From contig CAVUKB010000016.1 in NCBI GenBank assembly GCA_963741955.1, forward strand, positions 1-10,834: a DNA stretch of 10,834 nucleotides, written 5' to 3'. Under the pieces are notes generated by a model. The model was not told the origin of the DNA and did not search any database. It saw only the letters and a program-made list of their open reading frames with translations. Within the stretch, counting starts at the first letter, position 1, and every line of letters starts with the position of its first letter. This stretch comes from an uncultured Acidobacteriota bacterium (GTDB lineage: Bacteria > Acidobacteriota > Thermoanaerobaculia > Gp7-AA8). Of this stretch, positions 1,458 to 10,487 are shown one piece after another. The position numbers were made by a program, and so were the translations under genes.

Positions 1458-1844
1458 TCACACCTTCCGAATCGGCCCCGAGTACTCCGCAACGCGGCGA
1501 TCAGCAGTCAACAGCGTGACTCCCTCGGCCATCACCTGAGCGATCAGGATGCGATCGAAGGGATCTCTGTGAATCGCAGGAAGAGAATCGACGTTGACGG
1601 CGTGCTCGCTCGTGACCGGGAGCTCCTGGTATCCATTATCCAGGAGTGCGCGACGAAGGACGCGCGGCTCGACGCGGAAGTCCTTCCTGCCGAGAGAGCT
1701 CTTGATCGTGATTTCCCAGATGCTGGCCGCACTGAACAGAAGGTCATTCTTCTGGTCCAGAATCAGCTTGCGTGCAGCAGTAGAAAGGCGTTTCGGCTCA
1801 CCCGCGGCCCAGAGAATGAGCTGTGTGTCGAGCAGGAGTTTCAC
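1458..1844 (-). CDS. vapC: VapC family PIN-domain toxin, 128 aa
   Basis: MKLLLDTQLILW, SAASIWEITIK, HRDPFDRILIAQ, LLTAD carry the conserved PIN acidic residues. GTGA overlap with the upstream antitoxin. Confidence 0.95.
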   Translation of the reverse strand: MKLLLDTQLILWAAGEPKRLSTAARKLILDQKNDLLFSAASIWEITIKSSLGRKDFRVEPRVLRRALLDNGYQELPVTSEHAVNVDSLPAIHRDPFDRILIAQVMAEGVTLLTADRRVAEYSGPIRKV

Positions 1845-2080
1845 TCCGCGCCACCGAACATCGCTTCGATCTCATCCTTGCCCATTTCGTTGAAATCCTC
1901 CGGGACCTCGATCTCACCGAGCAGGAACCCGACCCGCTTCGGCTCGAGCGGTTGATCGACCGGCACGACTCTGACCATCGGCTTTCCCGCCTTCGCAATC
2001 ACCACGGATTCCCCCCCGGCTGCCTTCTCGACCAGCCGTGACAGATGGGTCTTCGCCTCGTGCATATTCACCGTAACCAT
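1841..2080 (-). CDS. Phd/YefM family antitoxin cognate to VapC, 79 aa
   Basis: TVNMHEAKTHLSRLVEKAAGGESVVIAKAGKPMVRVVP is the Phd/YefM fold signature. Acidic C-terminal tail; coupled to vapC. Confidence 0.93.
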   Translation of the reverse strand: MVTVNMHEAKTHLSRLVEKAAGGESVVIAKAGKPMVRVVPVDQPLEPKRVGFLLGEIEVPEDFNEMGKDEIEAMFGGAE

Positions 2081-2191: not shown

Positions 2192-3913
2192 ATGTCCCGA
2201 TCGAGCCGACGCGAGCGTGCCGTGCTTCTCATCGACAGTCTCGTCGACGATCCCTCCGACATCTACGAACAAGACGTCGGGGAACTCCTCGAAGGCGCGG
2301 ATGTCGTGTCGGTTCGTGAAGAGGTCTTCGAGCGCCTGCTGAAGGTCTGGAGCGGCATCGAGATCTCGATCCTGACGGCGCTGCTCGACAAGATCGGGAT
2401 CGGCGGTATGAAGGGAGAGCTCGCACGCGTCGTCACCGATCGTGGCCGCACGGGCGCTCTGCGATCCGCGGTCGCCGCGCTCCTGCTCACGCACGAACCG
2501 CAACTCGCGAAGAGAGTTCTTGCGAAGCTGAGCGCGGAAGAACGAGCGATGTTCGCGCAGGCACCGATCCGCGCCCTGCTCTCAGTCGTGATCGAGGATC
2601 CCGGCTCGATCGGCTCGGTCTCGAGCTTTCTGAAAGGTGCGGACGGAACGGACCCTCTCGACACGTTCGCGCTTCTCGAGGAGGTCCGGCGCGGGATGGG
2701 ACTGTATCCGTTGCAGGTCTACGAGGACGCTCTCTTCCACGACTCTCTGGAATCGCTGATCGAGCCTGTGGTCGATCTCATCATCGAGGAGCGCGACCCG
2801 CGCGGGGTCGAAGTCCTGCGTTTCATCGCGCAGAACGAGGAGGGGGAGCGTCAGCCGTTCTGGAAAGCTCTCGCCGAGCGCGCGGAGCGGGAGATCGGCG
2901 GCAAGCCGGCGGCCGCCGTGCTGGAGGCGGAGGCGTGGCTCGGATACCCGCTCCCGCCGTTTCCGCCGCCGGTCGTCCTCCTGGTCGAGAACCCCGACGG
3001 CACCCGCACCTTCGGCCTGCTGGAGCTGGGGCGGGGTCCTGTGGCCGATCGAAAGGGATCGGTCATCTATGATCCCGCCCCGGAACTGATCGAGCAGATC
3101 CCGCGCCCTCCCGATTCCGTCCGTGTCCCCTCCGGCATCGCCCGGGAGCTCTTCGAGAGCTACTGGGAGGCGCTCGGTGATGATGAGAGCGAGGAGATCT
3201 CGATCGCATTCGCGGAGCTGACGCAGCATCTTCCGCTCGCCGAGCTCCCGCGGATTCCAGAGCGTCGGGATCCGCACGAGGACGAGGTTCGTGAGCTTCT
3301 CGAAGAGCATCCGTATGCGAAGTGGCTTCTCGATTTCCGGGAGATGATTGCGGAGATGGAGGTCCCGGATTTACTGGAGGATCCGACGGAGGAGTGGCTC
3401 GCACGCGGAACCGGTCTGGTCGACGATTCCCGGCAGGCGGGATTGATCGCCGATGCGTTTCGCATGATGTCGCTGCTCCACCAGATCAAGGGGCAGGAGG
3501 ATCGTGCCTCGGTTGCGGCCACGCTCGCCAGGCGGATCGCAGAAGAGGGCCTGTCGTTTCTGGGGATCGGTCCAATTCTGTTGGAGCGCACGGTGAACGA
3601 GGTTCGTGTCCATGCGGCGACGGTCGCCAGGAAGCCGTCCGATCCTTGGGCGGTGGAGCCGCACGAGGAAGCAGAGATGCTGAGGCTCTTCCTGCCGGTC
3701 GCGAAGAAGCAACTGAAGGACTGGCGCGTGCCGTTTGTCCGCGAGACGTACGACCGGCTCCGTTCCGAGGGGATGAGCTCGCAGGATGCGGTGCGCGCGA
3801 TCGCGCTCGCAATCGCGGCCGACGCAAAGCGGATGACGATCCTCGACGCAGATTACGACGATGACATCTACATTGCCCGCCTCGATGCTCTGACGGGAGA
3901 AGCTTCCGCGTAA
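2192..3913 (+). CDS. Hypothetical acidic, largely alpha-helical protein (573 aa); possible HEAT-like N-terminal part and DUF1841-like C-terminal domain
   Basis: Long ORF with natural composition. TACAAT (2179-2184) sits 7 nt before the ATG. The C-terminus VRETYDRLRSEGMSSQDAVRAIA...YDDDIYIARLDAL resembles DUF1841-type helical domains (by eye only). Confidence 0.75.
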   Translation: MSRSSRRERAVLLIDSLVDDPSDIYEQDVGELLEGADVVSVREEVFERLLKVWSGIEISILTALLDKIGIGGMKGELARVVTDRGRTGALRSAVAALLLTHEPQLAKRVLAKLSAEERAMFAQAPIRALLSVVIEDPGSIGSVSSFLKGADGTDPLDTFALLEEVRRGMGLYPLQVYEDALFHDSLESLIEPVVDLIIEERDPRGVEVLRFIAQNEEGERQPFWKALAERAEREIGGKPAAAVLEAEAWLGYPLPPFPPPVVLLVENPDGTRTFGLLELGRGPVADRKGSVIYDPAPELIEQIPRPPDSVRVPSGIARELFESYWEALGDDESEEISIAFAELTQHLPLAELPRIPERRDPHEDEVRELLEEHPYAKWLLDFREMIAEMEVPDLLEDPTEEWLARGTGLVDDSRQAGLIADAFRMMSLLHQIKGQEDRASVAATLARRIAEEGLSFLGIGPILLERTVNEVRVHAATVARKPSDPWAVEPHEEAEMLRLFLPVAKKQLKDWRVPFVRETYDRLRSEGMSSQDAVRAIALAIAADAKRMTILDADYDDDIYIARLDALTGEASA

Positions 3914-4019: not shown

Positions 4020-4733
4020 TCAGTCGAGCCAGGCGTCGAACTCTGATGGCAGGAGCTCGGCGATCTGCTCGCCCGTCATCCCGTAGAGATCGTAATTCAG
4101 CCCGAGCTGATCGACCACGCGGATGAGCCGGCGCAGATTGCCCGGTCGATCTCCGGTCGTGGAGCCCCGCTTCGGCCTCGACGTCGCCTCGTCCCAGTAC
4201 AGCCGGTCGATCGCCTGCATCAGTCCGCGGTTCGAGATCAACTCCCGCCGGTGGGCGAGATCGTAGATGAACTGCCCGTGCTGATGCGCCGGGGGATAGA
4301 GGAGAAGCCGCGAATACTCGCCGTGCATCTGATAGAGACGGTACGGTCCCTCGAGCAAGTGCCGTGCGCGGGTCCAGCCGCTCGACCAGTCCGGGATGTA
4401 GTGGTAATCCTCACGCGGGCGCCGGAGTCCCCGCTCATCCGGCGGAGCCAGTTGCTCGAAATAGAACAGCGCGAGCCAGCTCCAGAGCCCCTGCTCTTTT
4501 GCATCGCCGCGCATCACGATCGTTCGAAGAAGACCCGACAGATACGCCGCTGCCTCGAACTTCGTCTCGAACGAGCGCTGCTCGATGCGAACGCGATCGC
4601 TCACCGGCTCCGATGTCGTCTCGACGAACAGGAGTGCCGGCGTCCCCTCGAACGGCCGCCCCTTCCGGATGAGCTCCAGGAAGCGCCGAAACTCATCGAT
4701 CCCCTTCGGCGTCAGTGCGCGGAGCTGCGGCAT
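4020..4733 (-). CDS. Hypothetical protein, gene 3 of the GHKL-ATPase operon (237 aa)
   Basis: ATG overlaps the stop of gene 2 (TGATG at 4735-4731). Aromatic/basic motifs GLWSWLALFYFEQL, RHLLEGPY, GNLRRLIRVVDQL. No family recognised. Confidence 0.85.
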   Translation of the reverse strand: MPQLRALTPKGIDEFRRFLELIRKGRPFEGTPALLFVETTSEPVSDRVRIEQRSFETKFEAAAYLSGLLRTIVMRGDAKEQGLWSWLALFYFEQLAPPDERGLRRPREDYHYIPDWSSGWTRARHLLEGPYRLYQMHGEYSRLLLYPPAHQHGQFIYDLAHRRELISNRGLMQAIDRLYWDEATSRPKRGSTTGDRPGNLRRLIRVVDQLGLNYDLYGMTGEQIAELLPSEFDAWLD

Positions 4734-5491
4734 CAGAGACTCGTCTCCGAGCGCATCCTGTCCAGGAGTGCATGTCTCGCGGCGAATTCACGTGCGAGCT
4801 GCTCGATCCACATCCGCTTCAGACCCGGATCGGCCTCCCGCTCCGGAACCGGCTCGGTCGTCAACCCATGGGCCCAGCGGAGCCACAGATGCCACCAGTC
4901 CTCTCCCTCCTCGTGTGGATCGACCTCCTCGACGAGCAGCATCTCGGTGAAGATCTCCCGCACGGCGGCCGGATAGACGGCTGCGAGAAAGAGCGGATCG
5001 AGCTTCGAGATCTGCTCGATCGACTCGAGTCGCTGGTTCAACTCGAGCAGTGGACCGTCGGACTCGAATTGCACGTTCCAGAGCATCTCGCCGAGCCCCT
5101 CGGAAAATGACACGGGGAGAAGAGGGATCGACGCACCACGTGAGGGGTCGCCATCGGTAATCCTGATTCCGTCCGCCACGCCCACGATCCGATGGTGCCG
5201 GTCGCTTTCGTCGACGACTTTCAGCCGGAAGTGAACGACATTCCTGCTGTCGATCTCCGTCAGCCTCCGGTCTTCCGGAATCGCAGGGTTGCCCACGTTG
5301 CCGCAAGCGAAGCGCATGTACGAGGTGCGATACCACGCTTCGAGATAGACGCGAGCCTCGGACGGCAGCTCGAGCCCGTCGAGGTTGAGTGAGAGATCGA
5401 ACGCGAGCTGATCTCGCGTCCGGCTGAGCTGAATCCGGACGCGGTTGCGCGGGATCTTCTTCCGCTGCGTGTAATTGAACTTCCGGATCAC
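4733..5491 (-). CDS. Hypothetical protein, gene 2 of the GHKL-ATPase operon (252 aa, starts MIRKFNYTQRKKI)
   Basis: GTG at 5491 overlaps the stop of gene 1 (GTGA), with GGAGG 7 nt upstream (5503-5499). The ORF track start at 5548 lies inside gene 1 and is less plausible. Confidence 0.85.
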   Translation of the reverse strand: MIRKFNYTQRKKIPRNRVRIQLSRTRDQLAFDLSLNLDGLELPSEARVYLEAWYRTSYMRFACGNVGNPAIPEDRRLTEIDSRNVVHFRLKVVDESDRHHRIVGVADGIRITDGDPSRGASIPLLPVSFSEGLGEMLWNVQFESDGPLLELNQRLESIEQISKLDPLFLAAVYPAAVREIFTEMLLVEEVDPHEEGEDWWHLWLRWAHGLTTEPVPEREADPGLKRMWIEQLAREFAARHALLDRMRSETSL

Positions 5492-7371
5492 GATTCGACC
5501 TCCGTCACGCGCACGACCAGATCGCGCCGCGAATCGAAGCCGCCACACGTGACGCGAAACGTTTCCGACTCCGTTTCGAGCTCGACCACGTTCTCTGCGC
5601 GCGACAGAATGCGCGCTCCCTCGACCTCGAGAGTGACATCGGCGCCGGAGAGGTCGAAGTCGAGCGGATCGTGCTTGCGGAACGGATTTCCATTCGGCGT
5701 CCGGTATGCGAGCTCCGCCCGCATCCGTGCACCCTCGCGCGGGGCCTGGCCCTCGATCACGAACCCGCCGCTGATCCGCCGGAGCTCGAGCGCGCTTCCG
5801 CCCGTCGCCGCAGGCGTTGATCCATCCGCAACCGTCTCGCCCTCGGAAGCGGGCTTTCGTCCTGGTGCTGGCGCATCACCGTCGTGCGGCAGCTCGATTG
5901 AAAAAAAGTCTCCGAGAAAATCGCGGACGCGTCCTTCTGGAGGACGGAGAAGAATCGACGCCAGGTGTCCCAGCGCCGTCTTCACGAAGCGCACCGTCGT
6001 CGCGCCGTGATCGTAATGTGCCCGGACGCGGTCGGCGCGCTCGGACCAGTCGGAATGCGCCGGGTTTTCCGCATCCCCGAGAAGCGTCGAGAGCTTGTCA
6101 TCGTCGACGACGAGGAGTGCGCGCACCGGCTTCTCTCGCGGCGTGCGGATCTCCGGGATCGTGATCCCGCGCCGGATGAAGTGGTGCTCTCCGCGCCGGA
6201 GGCTCTCGTCCTTCTCCATGAAGACGTCGAAGTGCGCATGCGCGGGGCGTGACCGGAGCCGCTTCACTGCGACCGGAACACGCACCGCGATTCGGTCACC
6301 CCGCTCGAGCCGCTCGCGCAGCCGTTCGACCCGCTGCGCCCCCACGATCTCGGCATCCCACTTCGGTGCGCGTGTCGGATCCTGCAGCTCGATCTCTTCG
6401 ATCTCCGCGGCTCCCGAGGTCACTGCCCATCTCGTCAGCGTGCACAGCTTCGCGATCTCCTCCGCCTCGGAGTCGATCGTGCGCGCGGCCACGGCCTCGA
6501 TCGAGCGACCGTCGATCGTCTCCGAGCGCGTGCCGTTTTCCACCTGTACCACGAGATCTCCTCGGATCACCGGGTAGAAATATTGCCGGACCACGGCGGC
6601 AGCGATCGAGGCAAACGGAATGTCGCCCTGGCGGAACCACGGGATGACGACCGAGAGGCCCGGTTCCTCACGCTGAAGCCCGAAGTCCTCACAGAAGCGT
6701 GCGATCAGCTCCGGATCCTCGATCGGCAATGGGAAGCCGCGCTCGTCATGCAGCGCGAAAAAGCCGTAAGGCGAGTAGCGCTCGGATGCGCGAACGTGAG
6801 TCTTGAGAACCGATTGTCCGAGGAGCAGTCGTCGGTTGTCGTCGGCCCGGTGGGTGAGACCGAGGATCGTGTGGATCTGGGATGCGATGGGGAAGACCGC
6901 CTTGCCGAGTCCCCATCGTCCGCGGTCGAGCTCTCCTTTGAGCGTGCGGCCGATGTTCCGCCAGAAGAAATAGAAATCGTTCTTGCCGGCGTCCTCCGGT
7001 TCGAGCTCCGGGTCTACGTCGGGACGGCCGGAGAGCCCGCGTGTCCCCGCGTCCTCGATGACGAGGAACGGCATCGGCTCGTCGAGCGGTGGCAGCCCTT
7101 CCGGCAGATCGTTCTCGAGCGACGCGAGGTGCGGGGCGAGTCCGTGAAGGTAGGCAGCCGCGCGCTCGGCCGGAAGCCGGTCGTTGCCGTCGGCGAAACG
7201 GAAACGGACGCGCACCTTCGAGTTGCCGCGCCGCGCGTCGAGCGAGTTCTGGATCACTTCGCGTACGAGTGCATCCGAGAGATCCTGCGCTTTGAAGAAC
7301 TCGTCGTGAACCGGATCGACGTTGATCTCTCCCGGCCCCATCCGCCGGAAGTCCCATTTCGGAAACCCCAT
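5488..7371 (-). CDS. GHKL (Hsp90/MutL/MORC-like) ATPase-domain protein, 627 aa, gene 1 of operon
   Basis: N-box LVREVIQNSLDA (REVIQNSLDA at 7263-7234), G1-like LVIEDAGTRGL, G2-like GRWGLGKAV and G3-like PGLSVVI occur in the expected order. ATG at 7371 is 7 nt after TAGAAT. The upstream ORF extension translates a tandem repeat. Confidence 0.8.
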   Translation of the reverse strand: MGFPKWDFRRMGPGEINVDPVHDEFFKAQDLSDALVREVIQNSLDARRGNSKVRVRFRFADGNDRLPAERAAAYLHGLAPHLASLENDLPEGLPPLDEPMPFLVIEDAGTRGLSGRPDVDPELEPEDAGKNDFYFFWRNIGRTLKGELDRGRWGLGKAVFPIASQIHTILGLTHRADDNRRLLLGQSVLKTHVRASERYSPYGFFALHDERGFPLPIEDPELIARFCEDFGLQREEPGLSVVIPWFRQGDIPFASIAAAVVRQYFYPVIRGDLVVQVENGTRSETIDGRSIEAVAARTIDSEAEEIAKLCTLTRWAVTSGAAEIEEIELQDPTRAPKWDAEIVGAQRVERLRERLERGDRIAVRVPVAVKRLRSRPAHAHFDVFMEKDESLRRGEHHFIRRGITIPEIRTPREKPVRALLVVDDDKLSTLLGDAENPAHSDWSERADRVRAHYDHGATTVRFVKTALGHLASILLRPPEGRVRDFLGDFFSIELPHDGDAPAPGRKPASEGETVADGSTPAATGGSALELRRISGGFVIEGQAPREGARMRAELAYRTPNGNPFRKHDPLDFDLSGADVTLEVEGARILSRAENVVELETESETFRVTCGGFDSRRDLVVRVTEVES

Positions 7372-7378
7372 CACCCCG

Positions 7379-7384
7379 ATTCTA
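7379..7384 (-). promoter_or_regulatory. -10 element TAGAAT for a probably leaderless GHKL operon transcript
   Basis: Minus strand reads TAGAAT-CGGGGTG-ATG. Confidence 0.5.
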
Positions 7385-7399
7385 TGATGGATGGGGAAG

Positions 7400-7434
7400 G
7401 AACGATGAAAGATGAACGATGAAAGATGAACGAG
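7400..7434. repeat. Heptamer tandem repeat (GAAMGAT) x5
   Basis: GAACGAT GAAAGAT GAACGAT GAAAGAT GAACGAG. Confidence 0.9.
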
Positions 7435-7513
7435 GAGCTCTCGCATTCGAAAGCAGCCACCCGTGGGAAGATCTCGACCGGCAACCTCTACGGAAGGGCA
7501 AGTTCATCCAGCC

Positions 7514-7564
7514 GTGTGGGTCGGGCCTCCGGCCCGATCTCCTCGGCCGTCCCGGCCGAGCGAG
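7514..7564 (+). repeat. Hairpin repeat family A copy 2
   Basis: 51/51 identical to 1000-1050. Confidence 0.9.
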
Positions 7565-7612
7565 GAGCTCCAGTTGCAGCGGCCTGTCACCGCTCAATTC
7601 TCGGGATGACCG

Positions 7613-7672
7613 CTCATGCCGCAAAACGACAGCTCATGCCGAAAACCGACACCTCATGCCGTAGAGCGACAA
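7613..7672 (+). repeat. Three 20-bp-period direct repeats CTCATGCCG-N5-CGACA-N
   Basis: CTCATGCCGcaaaaCGACAg / CTCATGCCGaaaacCGACAc / CTCATGCCGtagagCGACAa, with a degenerate fourth unit at 7593-7612. Confidence 0.85.
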
Positions 7673-7695
7673 ACGCACCGGCTTCGTCAACCTCA

Positions 7696-7794
7696 GAAAG
7701 GCCGCAAAGCGGCCGACAGCCATGTAGCCCCCGGCTTCAGCCGGGGGTAAATGCGCCCACCCCATTCCACGAAAGCCCGCGAAGCGGGCGACAG
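7696..7794 (+). repeat. REP/IS200-IS605-end-like hairpin cluster
   Basis: GAAA-GGCCGC-AAA-GCGGCC-GACAG (7696-7719), GTAG-CCCCCGGC-TTCA-GCCGGGGG (7724-7747), GAAA-GCCCGC-GAA-GCGGGC-GACAG (7771-7794). Confidence 0.7.
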
Positions 7795-7896
7795 AACGGT
7801 GGTTGGGTCACGAATAGAGTGAGCGTCCATAGAGTCCGCCGAGGTCTGCACAATGTTCCGCTGACTCGCTATGATGCCACCTCGGAGGCCCTATTC

Positions 7897-9063
7897 ATGA
7901 GCGAGTATCAATACTACGAATTTCTGGCCATCGATCAGCGTCTCACTGACGATGAGATCGACGAGCTGCGGAGCTACTCGAGCCGCGCCACGATCACGCC
8001 TTCGAGCTTCGTCAACGAATACAACTGGGGAGATTTCAAAGGGGACGTCGACCAGTGGATGGAGGACTACTTCGACGCCTTCCTCTACTTCGCGAACTGG
8101 GGGACCCGCATCCTGAAACTGCGGATCCCGGCTATGGCGATCGACGAAGAGACGCTCGCCGAGTACGCGGTCTCGGAGTCGTTCTGGTTCGAGCGGCACG
8201 GAGAGAAGTTGGTCCTCAGTTTCGTCGCCGAGGAGGTGGACATGGATGAATGGCCGGAGGAGCAGGACGCGCTCGCATCCCTCTTCACGTTGCGTGAGGA
8301 TCTCGCCAGGGGAGACTTTCGAGCGCTCTATCTCGGATGGCTTCTCTCTCAGCAGGGGTGGGAAGGCGAGGATGAAGATCTCGAGCCGCCGGTCCCGCCC
8401 GGCCTCGGGGAGCTCAACGGGGCGCTCAGCCGGTTTATCGATTTTCTCGGGATCGATCTCGACCTCGTCGAGGCAGCTGCGGCTGCGAGTCCGCCGCGGC
8501 GTGCTGTCGAGCTGACTGACGACGCGATCCGCGAATGGGTATCGCGACTGCCGCCCATCGAGCGCGACGACTATCTCGCCAGACTCATCGTCGACGACGA
8601 GCCGATGCTCGCGGTGCAATTGCAGCGGCAAGTTGCCGGAGAGGGTGAGACTCCCGCCGCTGAGCGCCGTACAGCCCAGGAACTACGTACAGCAGCAAGG
8701 ACGGCAGCGACCGAGCGCGAGCGAGCGATCGCCGAGCGCAGGGCAAGGCAAAGAGAGGAGGCGGCGCGGAAAGCAGCCGAGGAACGCGTCAGATATCTGG
8801 AGTCTCTCTCCGGACGCGAGCCCGAGCTGTGGGACACGATCGAGAATCTCATCGCGCTCACGCAGCCGAAGCATTACGACGAGGCGATCAGACTCCTTCT
8901 CGATCTTCGGGAACTGTCGATCAGCCGGGGTACTGAGAACCAATTCCTCGAGCTTCTGGACGATCTCCAGGTTCGACACTCGCGCAAGCCGTCGCTACTC
9001 CGCCGGCTGAACAAGGCTGGCCTCACGGCGCCATTCACCGGAACCCTCCGCCTCATTCATTGA
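7897..9063 (+). CDS. Conserved hypothetical protein of the MSEYQYYEF-start type (388 aa) with a C-terminal coiled coil
   Basis: GGAGG at 7884-7888 and TATGAT at 7870-7875 precede the ATG at 7897. MSEYQYYEFLAID...SSRATITPSSFVNEYNWGDFKGD...YFDAFLYFANWGTR is a recognisable uncharacterised family N-terminus. The ORF track's extra 157 codons cross repeats. Confidence 0.85.
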   Translation: MSEYQYYEFLAIDQRLTDDEIDELRSYSSRATITPSSFVNEYNWGDFKGDVDQWMEDYFDAFLYFANWGTRILKLRIPAMAIDEETLAEYAVSESFWFERHGEKLVLSFVAEEVDMDEWPEEQDALASLFTLREDLARGDFRALYLGWLLSQQGWEGEDEDLEPPVPPGLGELNGALSRFIDFLGIDLDLVEAAAAASPPRRAVELTDDAIREWVSRLPPIERDDYLARLIVDDEPMLAVQLQRQVAGEGETPAAERRTAQELRTAARTAATERERAIAERRARQREEAARKAAEERVRYLESLSGREPELWDTIENLIALTQPKHYDEAIRLLLDLRELSISRGTENQFLELLDDLQVRHSRKPSLLRRLNKAGLTAPFTGTLRLIH

Positions 9064-9140: not shown

Positions 9141-9350
9141 ATGGCGAGGACGACGATCTCGAGCAAATATCAGGTTGTGATTCCGAAGGTGATTCGGGAG
9201 CGGCACGGGCTGAAGGCGGGTCAGCAGATGCAGGTCATCAGCAAGGGAAGTGTGATCGCACTGGTGCCGGACCGGCCGGTCAAAGCATACCGAGGCATCC
9301 TGGGCGACGTTCCGCGGGAAGGCTACCGTGAGAAAAAGGATCGGATTTGA
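9141..9350 (+). CDS. AbrB/MazE/SpoVT family antitoxin (VapB-like), 69 aa
   Basis: TTISSKYQVVIPKVIRERHGLKAGQQM is the swapped-hairpin signature. Its stop overlaps a TTG that starts a PIN-like stub. Confidence 0.92.
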   Translation: MARTTISSKYQVVIPKVIRERHGLKAGQQMQVISKGSVIALVPDRPVKAYRGILGDVPREGYREKKDRI

Positions 9351-9382
9351 TTGTCATCGATTCCTCGGGCTGGATCGAGTAC
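9347..9382 (+). pseudogene. vapC: Truncated VapC/PIN toxin (first 12 codons only)
   Basis: TTGA overlap with the antitoxin. MIVIDSSGWIEY is a typical PIN N-terminus. Homology stops at 9382 and the frame closes at TGA 9455-9457. Confidence 0.75.
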
Positions 9383-9460
9383 TCGAAGGACGCTCAAGTT
9401 CCGCAAATCGATCAGAACCTCATACTCCGCATACAGCGCGTGGAAGTGCGGAGGTGAGTG
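9382..9460 (-). pseudogene. Inverted internal fragment of a DUF4160 (DhiT-like) toxin gene
   Basis: Reverse complement encodes HSPPHFHALYAEYEVLIDLRNLSVLR and matches 9886-9964 at 71 of 79 nt. Confidence 0.9.
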
Positions 9461-9528: not shown

Positions 9529-9660
9529 GATCAGGCGCTCGATGCTGATGTAGCGGCCAACCTCCAGTCCCTCGTGGTAACACTGAAGCAGAAGGAGCAG
9601 CCGGGAGACCCGGCCGTTTCCATCACGAAAGGGATGAACGCAGAGAAAATCGAGATCAAA
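9529..9660 (-). pseudogene. Fic/Doc family protein fragment containing the catalytic motif
   Basis: Minus frame reads FDLDFLCVHPFRDGNGRVSRLLLLLQCYHEGLEVGRYISIERLI. HPFRDGNGR lies at 9636-9610. There is an in-frame TGA upstream (9669-9667) and no start codon before the motif. Confidence 0.9.
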
Positions 9661-9684
9661 GCCAGTTCATCATCGAGCTGGATG

Positions 9685-9717
9685 AGCGTAGCGCCGATGA
9701 TCAATCGGCCGGGTCGC
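9685..9717 (+). repeat. Hairpin repeat family B copy 2
   Basis: AGCGTAGCGCCGATgatcAATCGGCCGGGtCGC; differences from copy 1 are mostly in or next to the loop. Confidence 0.8.
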
Positions 9718-9737
9718 CGGTTTTCGGCATCAAGACC

Positions 9738-9783
9738 CCGCAGGGCGAATCGCCCTGCGCACCAGCGCGCACGTTGCGCGCAC
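9738..9783 (+). repeat. Hairpin repeat family C copy 1 (46-bp double hairpin)
   Basis: CGCAGGGCGA-A-TCGCCCTGCG then GCGCGCA-CGT-TGCGCGC. Homologous to 10701-10746. Confidence 0.8.
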
Positions 9784-9833
9784 CCCTGCGTCGAGATGAC
9801 AGATGTTCCCGTCCGAGGGAGAATGGCGGGTCG

Positions 9834-10092
9834 ATGCCGACGATCAGCTGTTCTATGGTGTAGTCATTCAGATGTACTGGCACGACACGCGCCTCCGCAC
9901 TTTCACGCGCTGTATGCGGAGTACGAGGTTCTGATTGATTTGCGGGACTTGAGTGTGCTTCGAGGTTCACTACCTCGCAGGGCGATGAATCTCGTTCTGG
10001 AGTGGGCGGAGAGTCATCGAGACGAGTTGATGGAGGACTGGGAGCGATGCAGCAATCTACAGACACCAAAGCCGATCCCGCCGCTGACGTAG
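9834..10092 (+). pseudogene. dhiT: DUF4160 (DhiT-like) toxin with two single-base deletions (near 9849 and 9886); repaired product about 86 aa
   Basis: Restoring one base at each site gives MPTISxFYGVVIQMYWH(D)HAPPHFHALYAEYEVLIDL...GSLPRRAMNLVLEWAESHRDELMEDW...PKPIPPLT. Could be real decay or sequencing indels. Confidence 0.8.
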
Positions 10093-10382
10093 TTCCGGAG
10101 ATCGCCCCCGTCGCTCCGTGGAGGATGAGTGATCTCGTCGTGATCGAGCATGGCCGGCTGCGGGTGACATTCAATGACGGCTCGAGTGGAGAAGTCGATG
10201 TTCGCTCGCTGCTCGAGAGTCTTCGCGTTGACGGAACGGTCTTCGAGGATCTGCGCGATCCGGAGGTCTTCTCAAAGGTGACGCTGTGTCTCGGCGCTCC
10301 CTGCTGGCCTAACGGCGCCGACCTGGCTCCCGATGCCATCCACGAGTCAATCCAGCACACCGGCGTCTGGACTGCCGACTGA
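10047..10382 (+). CDS. dhiA: DUF2442 (DhiA-like) antitoxin, about 111 aa
   Basis: LRVTFNDGSSGEVD...VFEDLRDPEVFSKV...WPNGADLAPDAI is the DUF2442 pattern. GGAGGA at 10032-10037; overlaps the end of the DUF4160 gene. Confidence 0.85.
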   Translation: MQQSTDTKADPAADVVPEIAPVAPWRMSDLVVIEHGRLRVTFNDGSSGEVDVRSLLESLRVDGTVFEDLRDPEVFSKVTLCLGAPCWPNGADLAPDAIHESIQHTGVWTAD

Positions 10383-10395
10383 GCCGCTCAGCCTC

Positions 10396-10446
10396 GTGTG
10401 GGTCGGGCCTCCGGCCTGATCTCCTCGGCCGTCCCGGCCGAGCGAG
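10396..10446 (+). repeat. Hairpin repeat family A copy 3
   Basis: 50/51 identical to copy 1. The C>T change at 10417 leaves a G-T/G-U pair in stem 1. Confidence 0.9.
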
Positions 10447-10451
10447 GAGTG

Positions 10452-10487
10452 CAGCGTAGCGCCGATTACCAATCGGCCGTGCCGCAC
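10452..10487 (+). repeat. Hairpin repeat family B copy 3, directly abutting family A
   Basis: 34/36 identical to 1274-1309. Confidence 0.85.

Follow-up and report, generated by a model that had tools for sequence, protein, structure and literature searches.

The window analysed here is a stretch of 10,834 bases that makes up an entire contig (C16) of the genome of an uncultured Acidobacteriota bacterium (5.44 Mb in 16 contigs, 99.1% complete), and its minus strand carries an operon of three genes, g1, g2 and g3, whose products we call the A, B and C subunits of a trio. The first-pass annotation of this DNA had proposed a candidate defence system that it could match to no named system. Our analysis shows that the locus is not entirely undescribed; it is a diverged branch of the PDC-M33 / paraMORC2-like GHKL trios. 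We give a probability of about one in two to the reading that the trio is a clamp complex, driven by ATP, for the restriction of foreign DNA, and that it is partnered by a cytosine methylase in some lineages and stands alone in the window; the defence role of the family is proposed here from comparisons of sequence.

The three genes and their products

Three open reading frames (ORFs) follow one another on the minus strand (5488..7446, 652 amino acids (AAs) when counted to the first ATG, 4733..5548 and 4020..4733), and start codons chosen by the support of aligned homologues give the g1, g2 and g3 genes of table 1. The g1 stop and g2 start overlap in a GTGA (5491-5488), and the g2 stop and g3 start in a TGATG (4735-4731). 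Each of the three proteins spans 98–100% of its nearest homologues, and therefore all three genes are intact; the ORFs and this coverage bear out the first-pass description of three intact, co-oriented genes (627, 252 and 237 AAs) joined by such overlaps.

The g1-g2-g3 trio is a conserved unit that is coupled at translation, and both small partners of g1 look obligate. One genome per species was scanned, and the best 80 of 411 confirmed stretches (L008-L087) were kept as the sample to which all counts out of 80 below refer. When hidden Markov models (HMMs) of g2 and g3 were run over all six-frame ORFs of these loci, g2 was found directly after g1 in 71 of them and g3 after g2 in 67, with order and strand kept, so the three-gene synteny that the first-pass annotation had proposed to score among homologues is present. 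Among the 13 loci without g3, five end at a contig edge, one has a truncated g1, two have g2 only (L066 and L078) and five have g1 with neither partner (L072, L073, L074, L080 and L083). The genes that flank the trio vary from locus to locus, and the trio therefore moves as a unit. The 80 loci are from the bacterial phyla Acidobacteriota, Pseudomonadota, Thermodesulfobacteriota, Myxococcota, Nitrospirota, Planctomycetota, Bacteroidota, Verrucomicrobiota, Chloroflexota, Gemmatimonadota and Bacillota and from three archaeal genomes, at least 12 phyla overall. The g1 family comprises at least 1450 proteins in a 90% collection (only the 8000 candidates that share the most words were scored) and 2685 clusters at E ≤ 0.001 in a 50% identity library, 1057 of them at ≤ 1e-30; all members that carry a name are called "hypothetical". 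This is thus a large family of bacteria and archaea; Pfam and NCBIfam miss the window's branch of it altogether, and PADLOC almost does. Its distribution is patchy, with g1 present in six of 40 relatives of the window's genome and a PDC-M33A-type match (below) in 17 of 401 Acidobacteriota genomes, and this patchiness points to horizontal transfer. Phyla are intermixed in a FastTree tree of 72 g1 proteins (a quick tree, no bootstraps).

An AlphaFold2 model of g1, built with 60 diverse homologues as input, is confident, with a predicted local distance difference test (pLDDT) score of 88.7. Foldseek matches this model to 237 chains in the PDB at E ≤ 0.001, the top one being topoisomerase VI-B (2.4e-10), and the VIA-align structural comparison aligns g1 residues 12–480 to GHKL plus transducer structures. 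These fold matches indicate that g1 is a Bergerat-fold GHKL ATPase with an S5/transducer domain, and they uphold its first-pass assignment as a GHKL/MORC-like ATPase. The GHKL boxes noted in that annotation do occupy columns that are invariant, or nearly so, in an alignment of 60 sequences (table 1), and the sequence patterns of the superfamily (ExxxNxxD, DxGxG and GxxGxG) are all present. Beyond these boxes, R400 is conserved family-wide, and an invariant ExxxH motif lies towards the C-terminal end of the S5/transducer domain, within the structure-aligned stretch. The GHKL plus S5/transducer portion (12–480) is followed by a disordered linker (495–525) and a C-terminal beta domain (527–627). 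One g1 homologue, P0300 (724 AAs), has an HTH_3 domain fused at its N-terminus. Pfam finds nothing in g1 even at an E value of 10, including HATPase_c and HATPase_c_3, and the same tool did pick up the genuine HATPase_c_3 neighbours of the trio in loci L062 and L079. Nor does the g1 sequence match any solved structure in a search of PDB sequences, where a g1 profile does no better than E 0.012. Thus, g1 has the GHKL plus S5/transducer fold in common with the ATPase modules of MORC, SMCHD1, Hsp90, Topo VI-B and MutL, but differs from them in having only about 10% sequence identity to them and no match to Pfam HATPase_c or HATPase_c_3, a different C-terminal domain and two dedicated small partner genes.

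The g2 and g3 proteins match nothing in Pfam (even at E 10), NCBIfam or PADLOC; the NCBIfam scan covered five proteins and gave no family for any of them. We found 44 homologues of g2 and 289 of g3, and profiles of the two proteins gave nothing below E 0.012 against PDB sequences. The g3 protein is predicted to be helical (model pLDDT 87.7), and Foldseek finds no match for the model (best E 4.2 in the PDB and 2.5 in BFVD), a negative result that does not by itself make the fold a new one. In the ESM Atlas g2 finds only unnamed clusters of its own kind and g3 no usable named match. Only G11, W84, H125, G198, R202, Q209, D215 and P229 of g3 are invariant among 45 diverse relatives, and g2 has few invariant residues and no known catalytic pattern among them. 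No nuclease family was recognised in g1, g2 or g3 with Pfam, NCBIfam and PADLOC, nor in the fold of g3; g2 and, taken on its own, the C-terminal domain of g1 were not part of the fold searches. A binding prediction for g2 and g3 gave scores of 0.57, 0.57 and 0.65, with one control as high as 0.43, and these speak neither for nor against the stoichiometric complex inferred in the first-pass annotation.

Relationship to PDC-M33, paraMORC2 and other GHKL systems

The PDC systems are 145 candidates reported to have been found through "guilt by embedding" in BREX, DISARM and type I restriction-modification loci, and PDC-M33 is a three-gene (A-B-C) "phage defence candidate" of PADLOC-DB v2 (Payne et al., bioRxiv 10.1101/2024.01.29.577857). 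The window's g1 matches the PADLOC model PDC-M33A with an E value of 7.9e-17 (residues 24–296 on profile positions 24–282 of 627), as compared to 3.5e-82 (profile 4–622 of 627) for the bona fide A protein of an Arthrobacter agilis plasmid (L099). The same model, which is the sole PADLOC family for g1 and its relatives, matches 60 of 60 g1 relatives, all weakly (best 1.5e-27). The PDC-M33B and PDC-M33C models match neither g2 and g3 (E ≤ 10) nor any of 73 relatives (E ≤ 1), and since g2 and g3 match no PADLOC model at all, PADLOC would not call the window locus.

Distant g1 relatives on plasmids, found by tblastn, show the arrangement of PDC-M33 itself. The A. agilis plasmid has a 75-AA ORF followed by PDC-M33A (628 AAs), PDC-M33B (295 AAs, 6e-30) and PDC-M33C (252 AAs, 1e-31, named "DUF6339 family"), and this set lies between a dcm-vsr-type II restriction endonuclease cluster and a Shedu gene; on a plasmid of Enterococcus faecalis, AIPR accompanies the same three genes A-B-C. 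In 13 further regions with A-type genes, from Acidobacteriota genomes and a Rhizobium plasmid, the next gene encodes 250–340 AAs and the third, where the sequence reached that far, 225–270 AAs. The last gene is DUF6339 in four of the four sister-branch loci tested, and in the sister-branch loci L121 and L129 the A-B-C genes run straight into a Dcm gene.

The window trio and PDC-M33 thus have in common a coupled A-B-C layout in which A is a GHKL ATPase of about 630 AAs, and gene sizes are comparable (627/252/237 AAs in the window versus 628/295/252 in L099 and 639/288/262 in L098). The E and H of the ExxxH motif are kept in nine of nine sister-branch A proteins, including PDC-M33A, and Dcm/Vsr linkage occurs in both branches. 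In addition, a conserved 75-AA gene with no Pfam match, whose product may be a regulator, precedes g1 in nine of the 80 loci and recurs before PDC-M33A in L099 (E 1.2e-22); it is optional in both branches, and the window has no copy (the window ORF 7382..7624 was considered for this role and rejected, having no similarity to that family). The C subunit, DUF6339, is a probable homologue of g3. In an hhalign comparison, 45 g3 sequences and nine DUF6339 sequences aligned with a probability of 77% (local) or 89.5% (global), with P values of 2e-5 and 2.3e-7 over 203–221 colinear columns, and cross controls gave P values of 0.25–0.98; g3 is thus probably a remote DUF6339 relative. The Pfam DUF6339 model (PF19866), which the sister-branch C proteins match at 1.3e-39 to 1.6e-7, does not match g3 and touches one of 45 g3 relatives at E 0.11, and a precomputed database tag of PF19866 on g3 could be confirmed neither with hmmscan nor in the window's own genome. 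For g2 and the PDC-M33 B subunits hhalign P values are 9e-4 to 5e-3, which is only suggestive. (Single-sequence hhalign runs of the window proteins against the B and C proteins of L099 were not significant and were replaced by these multi-sequence comparisons.) On the other hand, the window's g1 matches the A model over its N-terminal part only, and g2 and g3 are unmatched by the B and C models. By these sequence comparisons the window's branch appears to be a strongly diverged sister of the candidate PDC-M33, and the first-pass statement that no named system matches is not borne out as written: g1 matches PDC-M33A, PDC-M33 shares the gene layout, the ExxxH motif and the small upstream gene, and a published description, that of paraMORC2, also fits. 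Our literature searches for PDC-M33 and DUF6339 turned up no paper; the main text of the DefensePredictor preprint does not mention GHKL, HATPase, MORC or Hsp90, and that of the embedded-defence preprint does not mention GHKL, HATPase, MORC, MutL or Dcm.

The paraMORC2 proteins were described by Iyer, Abhiman and Aravind in 2008 (PMC2292703) as GHKL plus S5 proteins with an ExxxH strongly conserved towards the C-terminal end of S5, sporadically distributed in bacteria and archaea and found in neighbourhoods with cytosine methylases and Vsr; the authors predicted that paraMORC GHKL ATPases act in restriction-modification systems alongside these two enzymes. The g1 protein fits this description in its GHKL and S5 domains, its ExxxH in the C-terminal part of S5, its sporadic spread and its family's cytosine methylase/Vsr neighbourhoods, a match made to the published description. 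There are differences. The paraMORC2 proteins were reported mainly in cyanobacteria and Gram-positives (PMC2292703), whereas the loci sampled here are mainly from Acidobacteriota, Pseudomonadota, Planctomycetota, Bacteroidota, Verrucomicrobiota and Chloroflexota, and the SFII helicases and RE-fold nucleases stressed as partners in that paper are no part of the trio. We found no description of the trio in those portions of the paraMORC literature that were available to us (PMC2292703, PMC8011034, the Tiamat preprint and PMC12137116).

In Shedu type I-D / paraMORC3 (VcSduA, PMC12137116) and Tiamat (bioRxiv 10.64898/2026.09.30.754977) a GHKL ATPase is, according to those reports, proposed or shown to control an attack on DNA, and its ATPase site is needed for defence. 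These are single genes described as having a PD-(D/E)xK nuclease (DUF4263 or DUF3883) in the same chain, whereas no nuclease domain was found in the trio, and the PADLOC models of Mza, Tiamat and Shedu (SduA) do not match it.

Cytosine methylase linkage and the role of the trio

Neighbours of the trio were surveyed by clustering of flanking genes, Pfam searches with 149 + 82 of these genes and local HMMs of the recurrent clusters run over the 80 loci. A C5-cytosine methylase (Dcm, PF00145) lies directly beside the trio in 21 of them, about a quarter, and Vsr (PF03852), which usually accompanies that Dcm, in 16; other recurrent neighbours are the EcoRII-C endonuclease (five loci), MvaI/BcnI (one) and an HTH_3 controller-like protein (four). 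Dcm genes are concentrated at the borders of the trio, with 21 in 258 kb (8.1 per 100 kb) at 0–2 kb, two in 222 kb (0.9 per 100 kb) at 2–4 kb and none in 244 kb at 4–6.5 kb. In 14 of the 21 linked loci the Dcm gene is on the trio's strand, and in nine of these it is no more than 200 nt away. On the g1 tree, Dcm linkage requires at least eight changes, at least five of them forced by well-supported branches. The linkage to cytosine methyltransferase and vsr genes considered in the first-pass annotation is thus real for the family, but not for the nine Acidobacteriota rows of the window's own clade, none of which is Dcm-linked. Several relatives lie among restriction and toxin-antitoxin genes, and found beside the trio in relatives are HsdM, a type III Mod/Res pair, McrBC, SNF2-PLD, Eco57I/MmeI-like enzymes, toxin-antitoxin genes and transposases.

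If the trio is such a clamp complex, g1 would, like other GHKL proteins, dimerise to form an ATP-gated clamp on DNA, and g2 and g3 would be its adaptor and/or effector subunits. A DNA-damaging or DNA-blocking activity might come from g2 or g3, from the ExxxH site or from the g1 C-terminal domain. In versions with a co-encoded Dcm, 5-methylcytosine would mark self DNA in a restriction-modification-like logic; the window's Acidobacteriota clade, with no linked methylase, probably would distinguish foreign DNA in some other way. If it is a defence system, the family would contribute a widespread mechanism based on a GHKL clamp and two subunits of no known fold, and the 2008 prediction of a role for paraMORC ATPases in cytosine-methylation-linked restriction would for the first time be open to experiment. 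The split between Dcm-linked and Dcm-free loci is a natural test of how self and foreign DNA are discriminated, and such discrimination by the trio has a bearing on the origin of DNA methylation reading by eukaryotic MORC and SMCHD1.

Several observations weigh against this interpretation. Pfam, NCBIfam and PADLOC revealed no domain of a nuclease, helicase or methylase in g1, g2 or g3 or elsewhere in the window, in agreement with the first-pass statement that it holds no methyltransferase or recognisable nuclease (none among nine long and five small ORFs scanned); in terms of restriction-modification, a methyltransferase is encoded alongside the trio at 21 of the 80 relatives' loci and not in the window, and no recognisable endonuclease was found among g1, g2 and g3 in the family libraries or in the g3 fold. 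Few polar residues of g2 and g3 are invariant over this wide family, and plainly housekeeping genes neighbour the trio at many loci. We found no copies in 50,697 phage records. No Dcm gene is present inside the flanks covered at 59 of the 80 loci, and in six of the 21 Dcm-linked loci there is an ordinary type II endonuclease (EcoRII-C in five, MvaI/BcnI in one), so the Dcm there may belong to that enzyme. Finally, PF00145 is present in only two of the five related genomes with a full-length g1 and was not found in the other three g1 carriers (G005, 99% complete, G021, 98%, and G025, 78%), so a Dcm partner is not obligatory. This last finding also weakens the first-pass idea that the window trio has lost its methylase partner or become unlinked from it. 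By comparison, PF00145 is present in 10 of 34 related genomes that lack g1.

These Dcm-free loci and genomes, the absence of Dcm linkage from all nine rows of the window's clade and the type II endonucleases that could account for some of the methylases all favour a modification-dependent (type IV-like) or a methylation-independent restriction system that needs no partner methylase and is directed at incoming DNA that is modified or aberrant in another way, in which case the adjacency of Dcm would be simple clustering in defence islands. We nonetheless hold this to be unlikely, since nine loci have a same-strand Dcm gene within 200 nt of the trio, the A-B-C-Dcm order of L121 and L129 looks like co-expression, a 5-methylcytosine-dependent nuclease co-expressed with Dcm risks attacking its own host, and the fall of Dcm density to zero past 4 kb is tighter than loose island clustering.

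Vsr is a general companion of Dcm genes, so its presence adds little beyond the Dcm linkage. This also bears on a possible accessory function of the trio in DNA repair, in which it would serve not in defence but as a MutL-like clamp that works with Vsr in very-short-patch repair of the T:G mismatches that result from 5-methylcytosine deamination. Besides the general association of Vsr with Dcm, 59 of the 80 loci have neither gene, the patchy distribution points to horizontal transfer, plasmid copies lie between Shedu and a restriction-modification system and g1 has no match to the MutL families in Pfam, all of which make a repair role quite improbable.

The Planctomycetaceae present a different picture, and one that also fits poorly with defence. 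Members of this clade (L066, L073, L074, L078, L080, L083, L084 and L085) have g1 alone or g1 and g2, in a conserved housekeeping context. The order of loss in the clade is g3, then g2, and g1 remains full length; this gene loss may be domestication or stepwise decay, and some members adjoin a conserved AP_endonuc_2 gene. Such solitary g1 genes figure in another alternative, namely that the trio is a nuclease-free, chromatin-type machine, in which a MORC/SMCHD1-like clamp compacts or silences foreign DNA (the mobile versions) or the nucleoid (the Planctomycetaceae g1-alone versions). The absence of a recognisable nuclease is weak evidence for this; g2, g3 and the g1 C-terminal domain have unexplored folds and could be catalytic, and the GHKL families are nearly tied in the structural ranking of g1, so we consider it, too, quite improbable. 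A bolder proposal, which we regard as rather unlikely though less so than the last two, is that the trio is a new type of DNA-restricting machine that has no classical nuclease: either the GHKL clamp activates a new nuclease fold in g3 (DUF6339-like) or g2, or a MORC/SMCHD1-like complex clamps and silences invading DNA without host 5-methylcytosine; if the silencing variant is true, it would be a prokaryotic counterpart of methylation-guided chromatin silencing.

A few other features of these loci deserve mention. The window's own genome has three Dcm-Vsr pairs, all on other contigs, and one of them is broken. It lies at the very end of contig C12 (9043 bases), at 7614-8806; its Dcm gene has an internal stop and split frames, and the adjoining Vsr gene is split across two frames. 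In L062 (6138-7991) and L079 (4684-7988) a second, different GHKL gene (HATPase_c_3 in both, with HATPase_c in addition in L079) and a 380-AA gene lie between the Dcm/Vsr/HTH genes and the trio, so two GHKL systems adjoin one methylase there; the extra genes resemble the HEF_HK/Response_reg_2 paraMORC-like pairs reported by Bellieny-Rabelo et al. (2021). Two Chloroflexota loci, L060 (10681-13256) and L081 (9937-13653), have at the g3 position two enlarged g3-like ORFs of about 384 and 472 AAs and 524 and 395 AAs, respectively, with no Pfam match.

Surroundings of the trio in the window

Table 1. Features of the 10,834 base window and of the g1 protein
Feature	Position	Strand	Remarks
g1 (A subunit)	5488..7371	-	627 AAs; GHKL ATPase + S5/transducer domain, disordered linker, C-terminal beta domain
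N box REVIQNSLDA, g1 residues 37-46	7234..7263	-	ATP/Mg site of Bergerat fold; R37, Q41, N42, D45 invariant, E38 at least 90% (60 sequences)
G1 box IEDAGTRGLSG, g1 residues 105-115	7027..7059	-	D107, G112, L113, G115 invariant (60 sequences)
G2 box RGRWGLGK, g1 residues 150-157	6901..6924	-	G151, G154, G156 invariant; R152, W153, K157 at least 90% (60 sequences)
ExxxH motif, LGDAENPAHSDW, g1 residues 431-442	6046..6081	-	E435, H439, W442 invariant (60 sequences)
g1 C-terminal beta domain, residues 527-627	5491..5793	-	strands in model; conserved D571, F572, G611, F612, R616
g2 (B subunit)	4733..5491	-	252 AAs, GTG start; no known family
g3 (C subunit)	4020..4733	-	237 AAs, ATG start; helical; probable remote DUF6339 relative
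64-nt repeat copy, g1 upstream region	7508..7571	.	role unassigned, possibly unrelated to trio
PIN toxin	1458-1844	-	partner of Phd/YefM antitoxin; appears intact
Phd/YefM antitoxin	1841-2080	-	paired with PIN toxin; appears intact
Flanking ORF, 573 AAs	2192..3913	+	no Pfam, NCBIfam or PADLOC match
Flanking ORF, 388 AAs	7897..9063	+	no Pfam, NCBIfam or PADLOC match
MazE/AbrB antitoxin	9141-9350	+	then only a 36-AA PIN-like start (MazE/AbrB + PIN-like region 9141-9457)
DUF4160 (split across two frames), then DUF2442	9574-10382	+	

The first-pass annotation saw the trio as lying in a toxin-antitoxin island with decayed toxin genes, and this is correct in part; the PIN-like gene after MazE/AbrB is cut at 36 AAs (this start was recognised by eye and has no Pfam match) and DUF4160 is split, but the Phd/YefM and PIN pair looks intact. 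A 79-nt inverted repeat (9382-9460 and 9886-9964, 90% complementary, 425 nt apart) brackets the stop of the PIN-like gene and the out-of-frame DUF4160, and may be a scar of an insertion or rearrangement. The two ORFs that flank the trio were considered as members of the system and rejected, as neither has a counterpart beside the trio in any other locus.

In theory, the trio could be of no benefit to the host, whether as a decaying remnant or as cargo of a selfish or addiction type that mobile elements carry, and the richness of this 10.8-kb contig in toxin-antitoxin genes and short repeats, as well as the transposases beside some relatives, is in keeping with such an origin. But all three genes are full length with their conserved motifs intact, conservation of this large family extends across phyla, and none of the three proteins has a toxin-like domain, which makes this the least credible of the explanations, with very little probability in our view.

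The short repeats include a 64-nt direct repeat present three times (994-1057, 7508-7571 and 10390-10453, 84–100% identity), whose middle copy is just upstream of g1, and a 36-nt direct repeat also present three times (1274-1309, 9684-9719 and 10452-10487). A megablast search with the whole window found no match in the rest of the genome beyond contig C16, no Rfam family or tRNA was found in the window, and a scan of the operon for promoters and terminators gave nothing exceeding chance. Among the sequencing runs listed, one soil DNA run shares 0.05 of words and none is an RNA run. The genome assembly has seven small contigs of 8.6–12.8 kb alongside large ones, which suggests that the small ones are variable or repeat-bounded islands.

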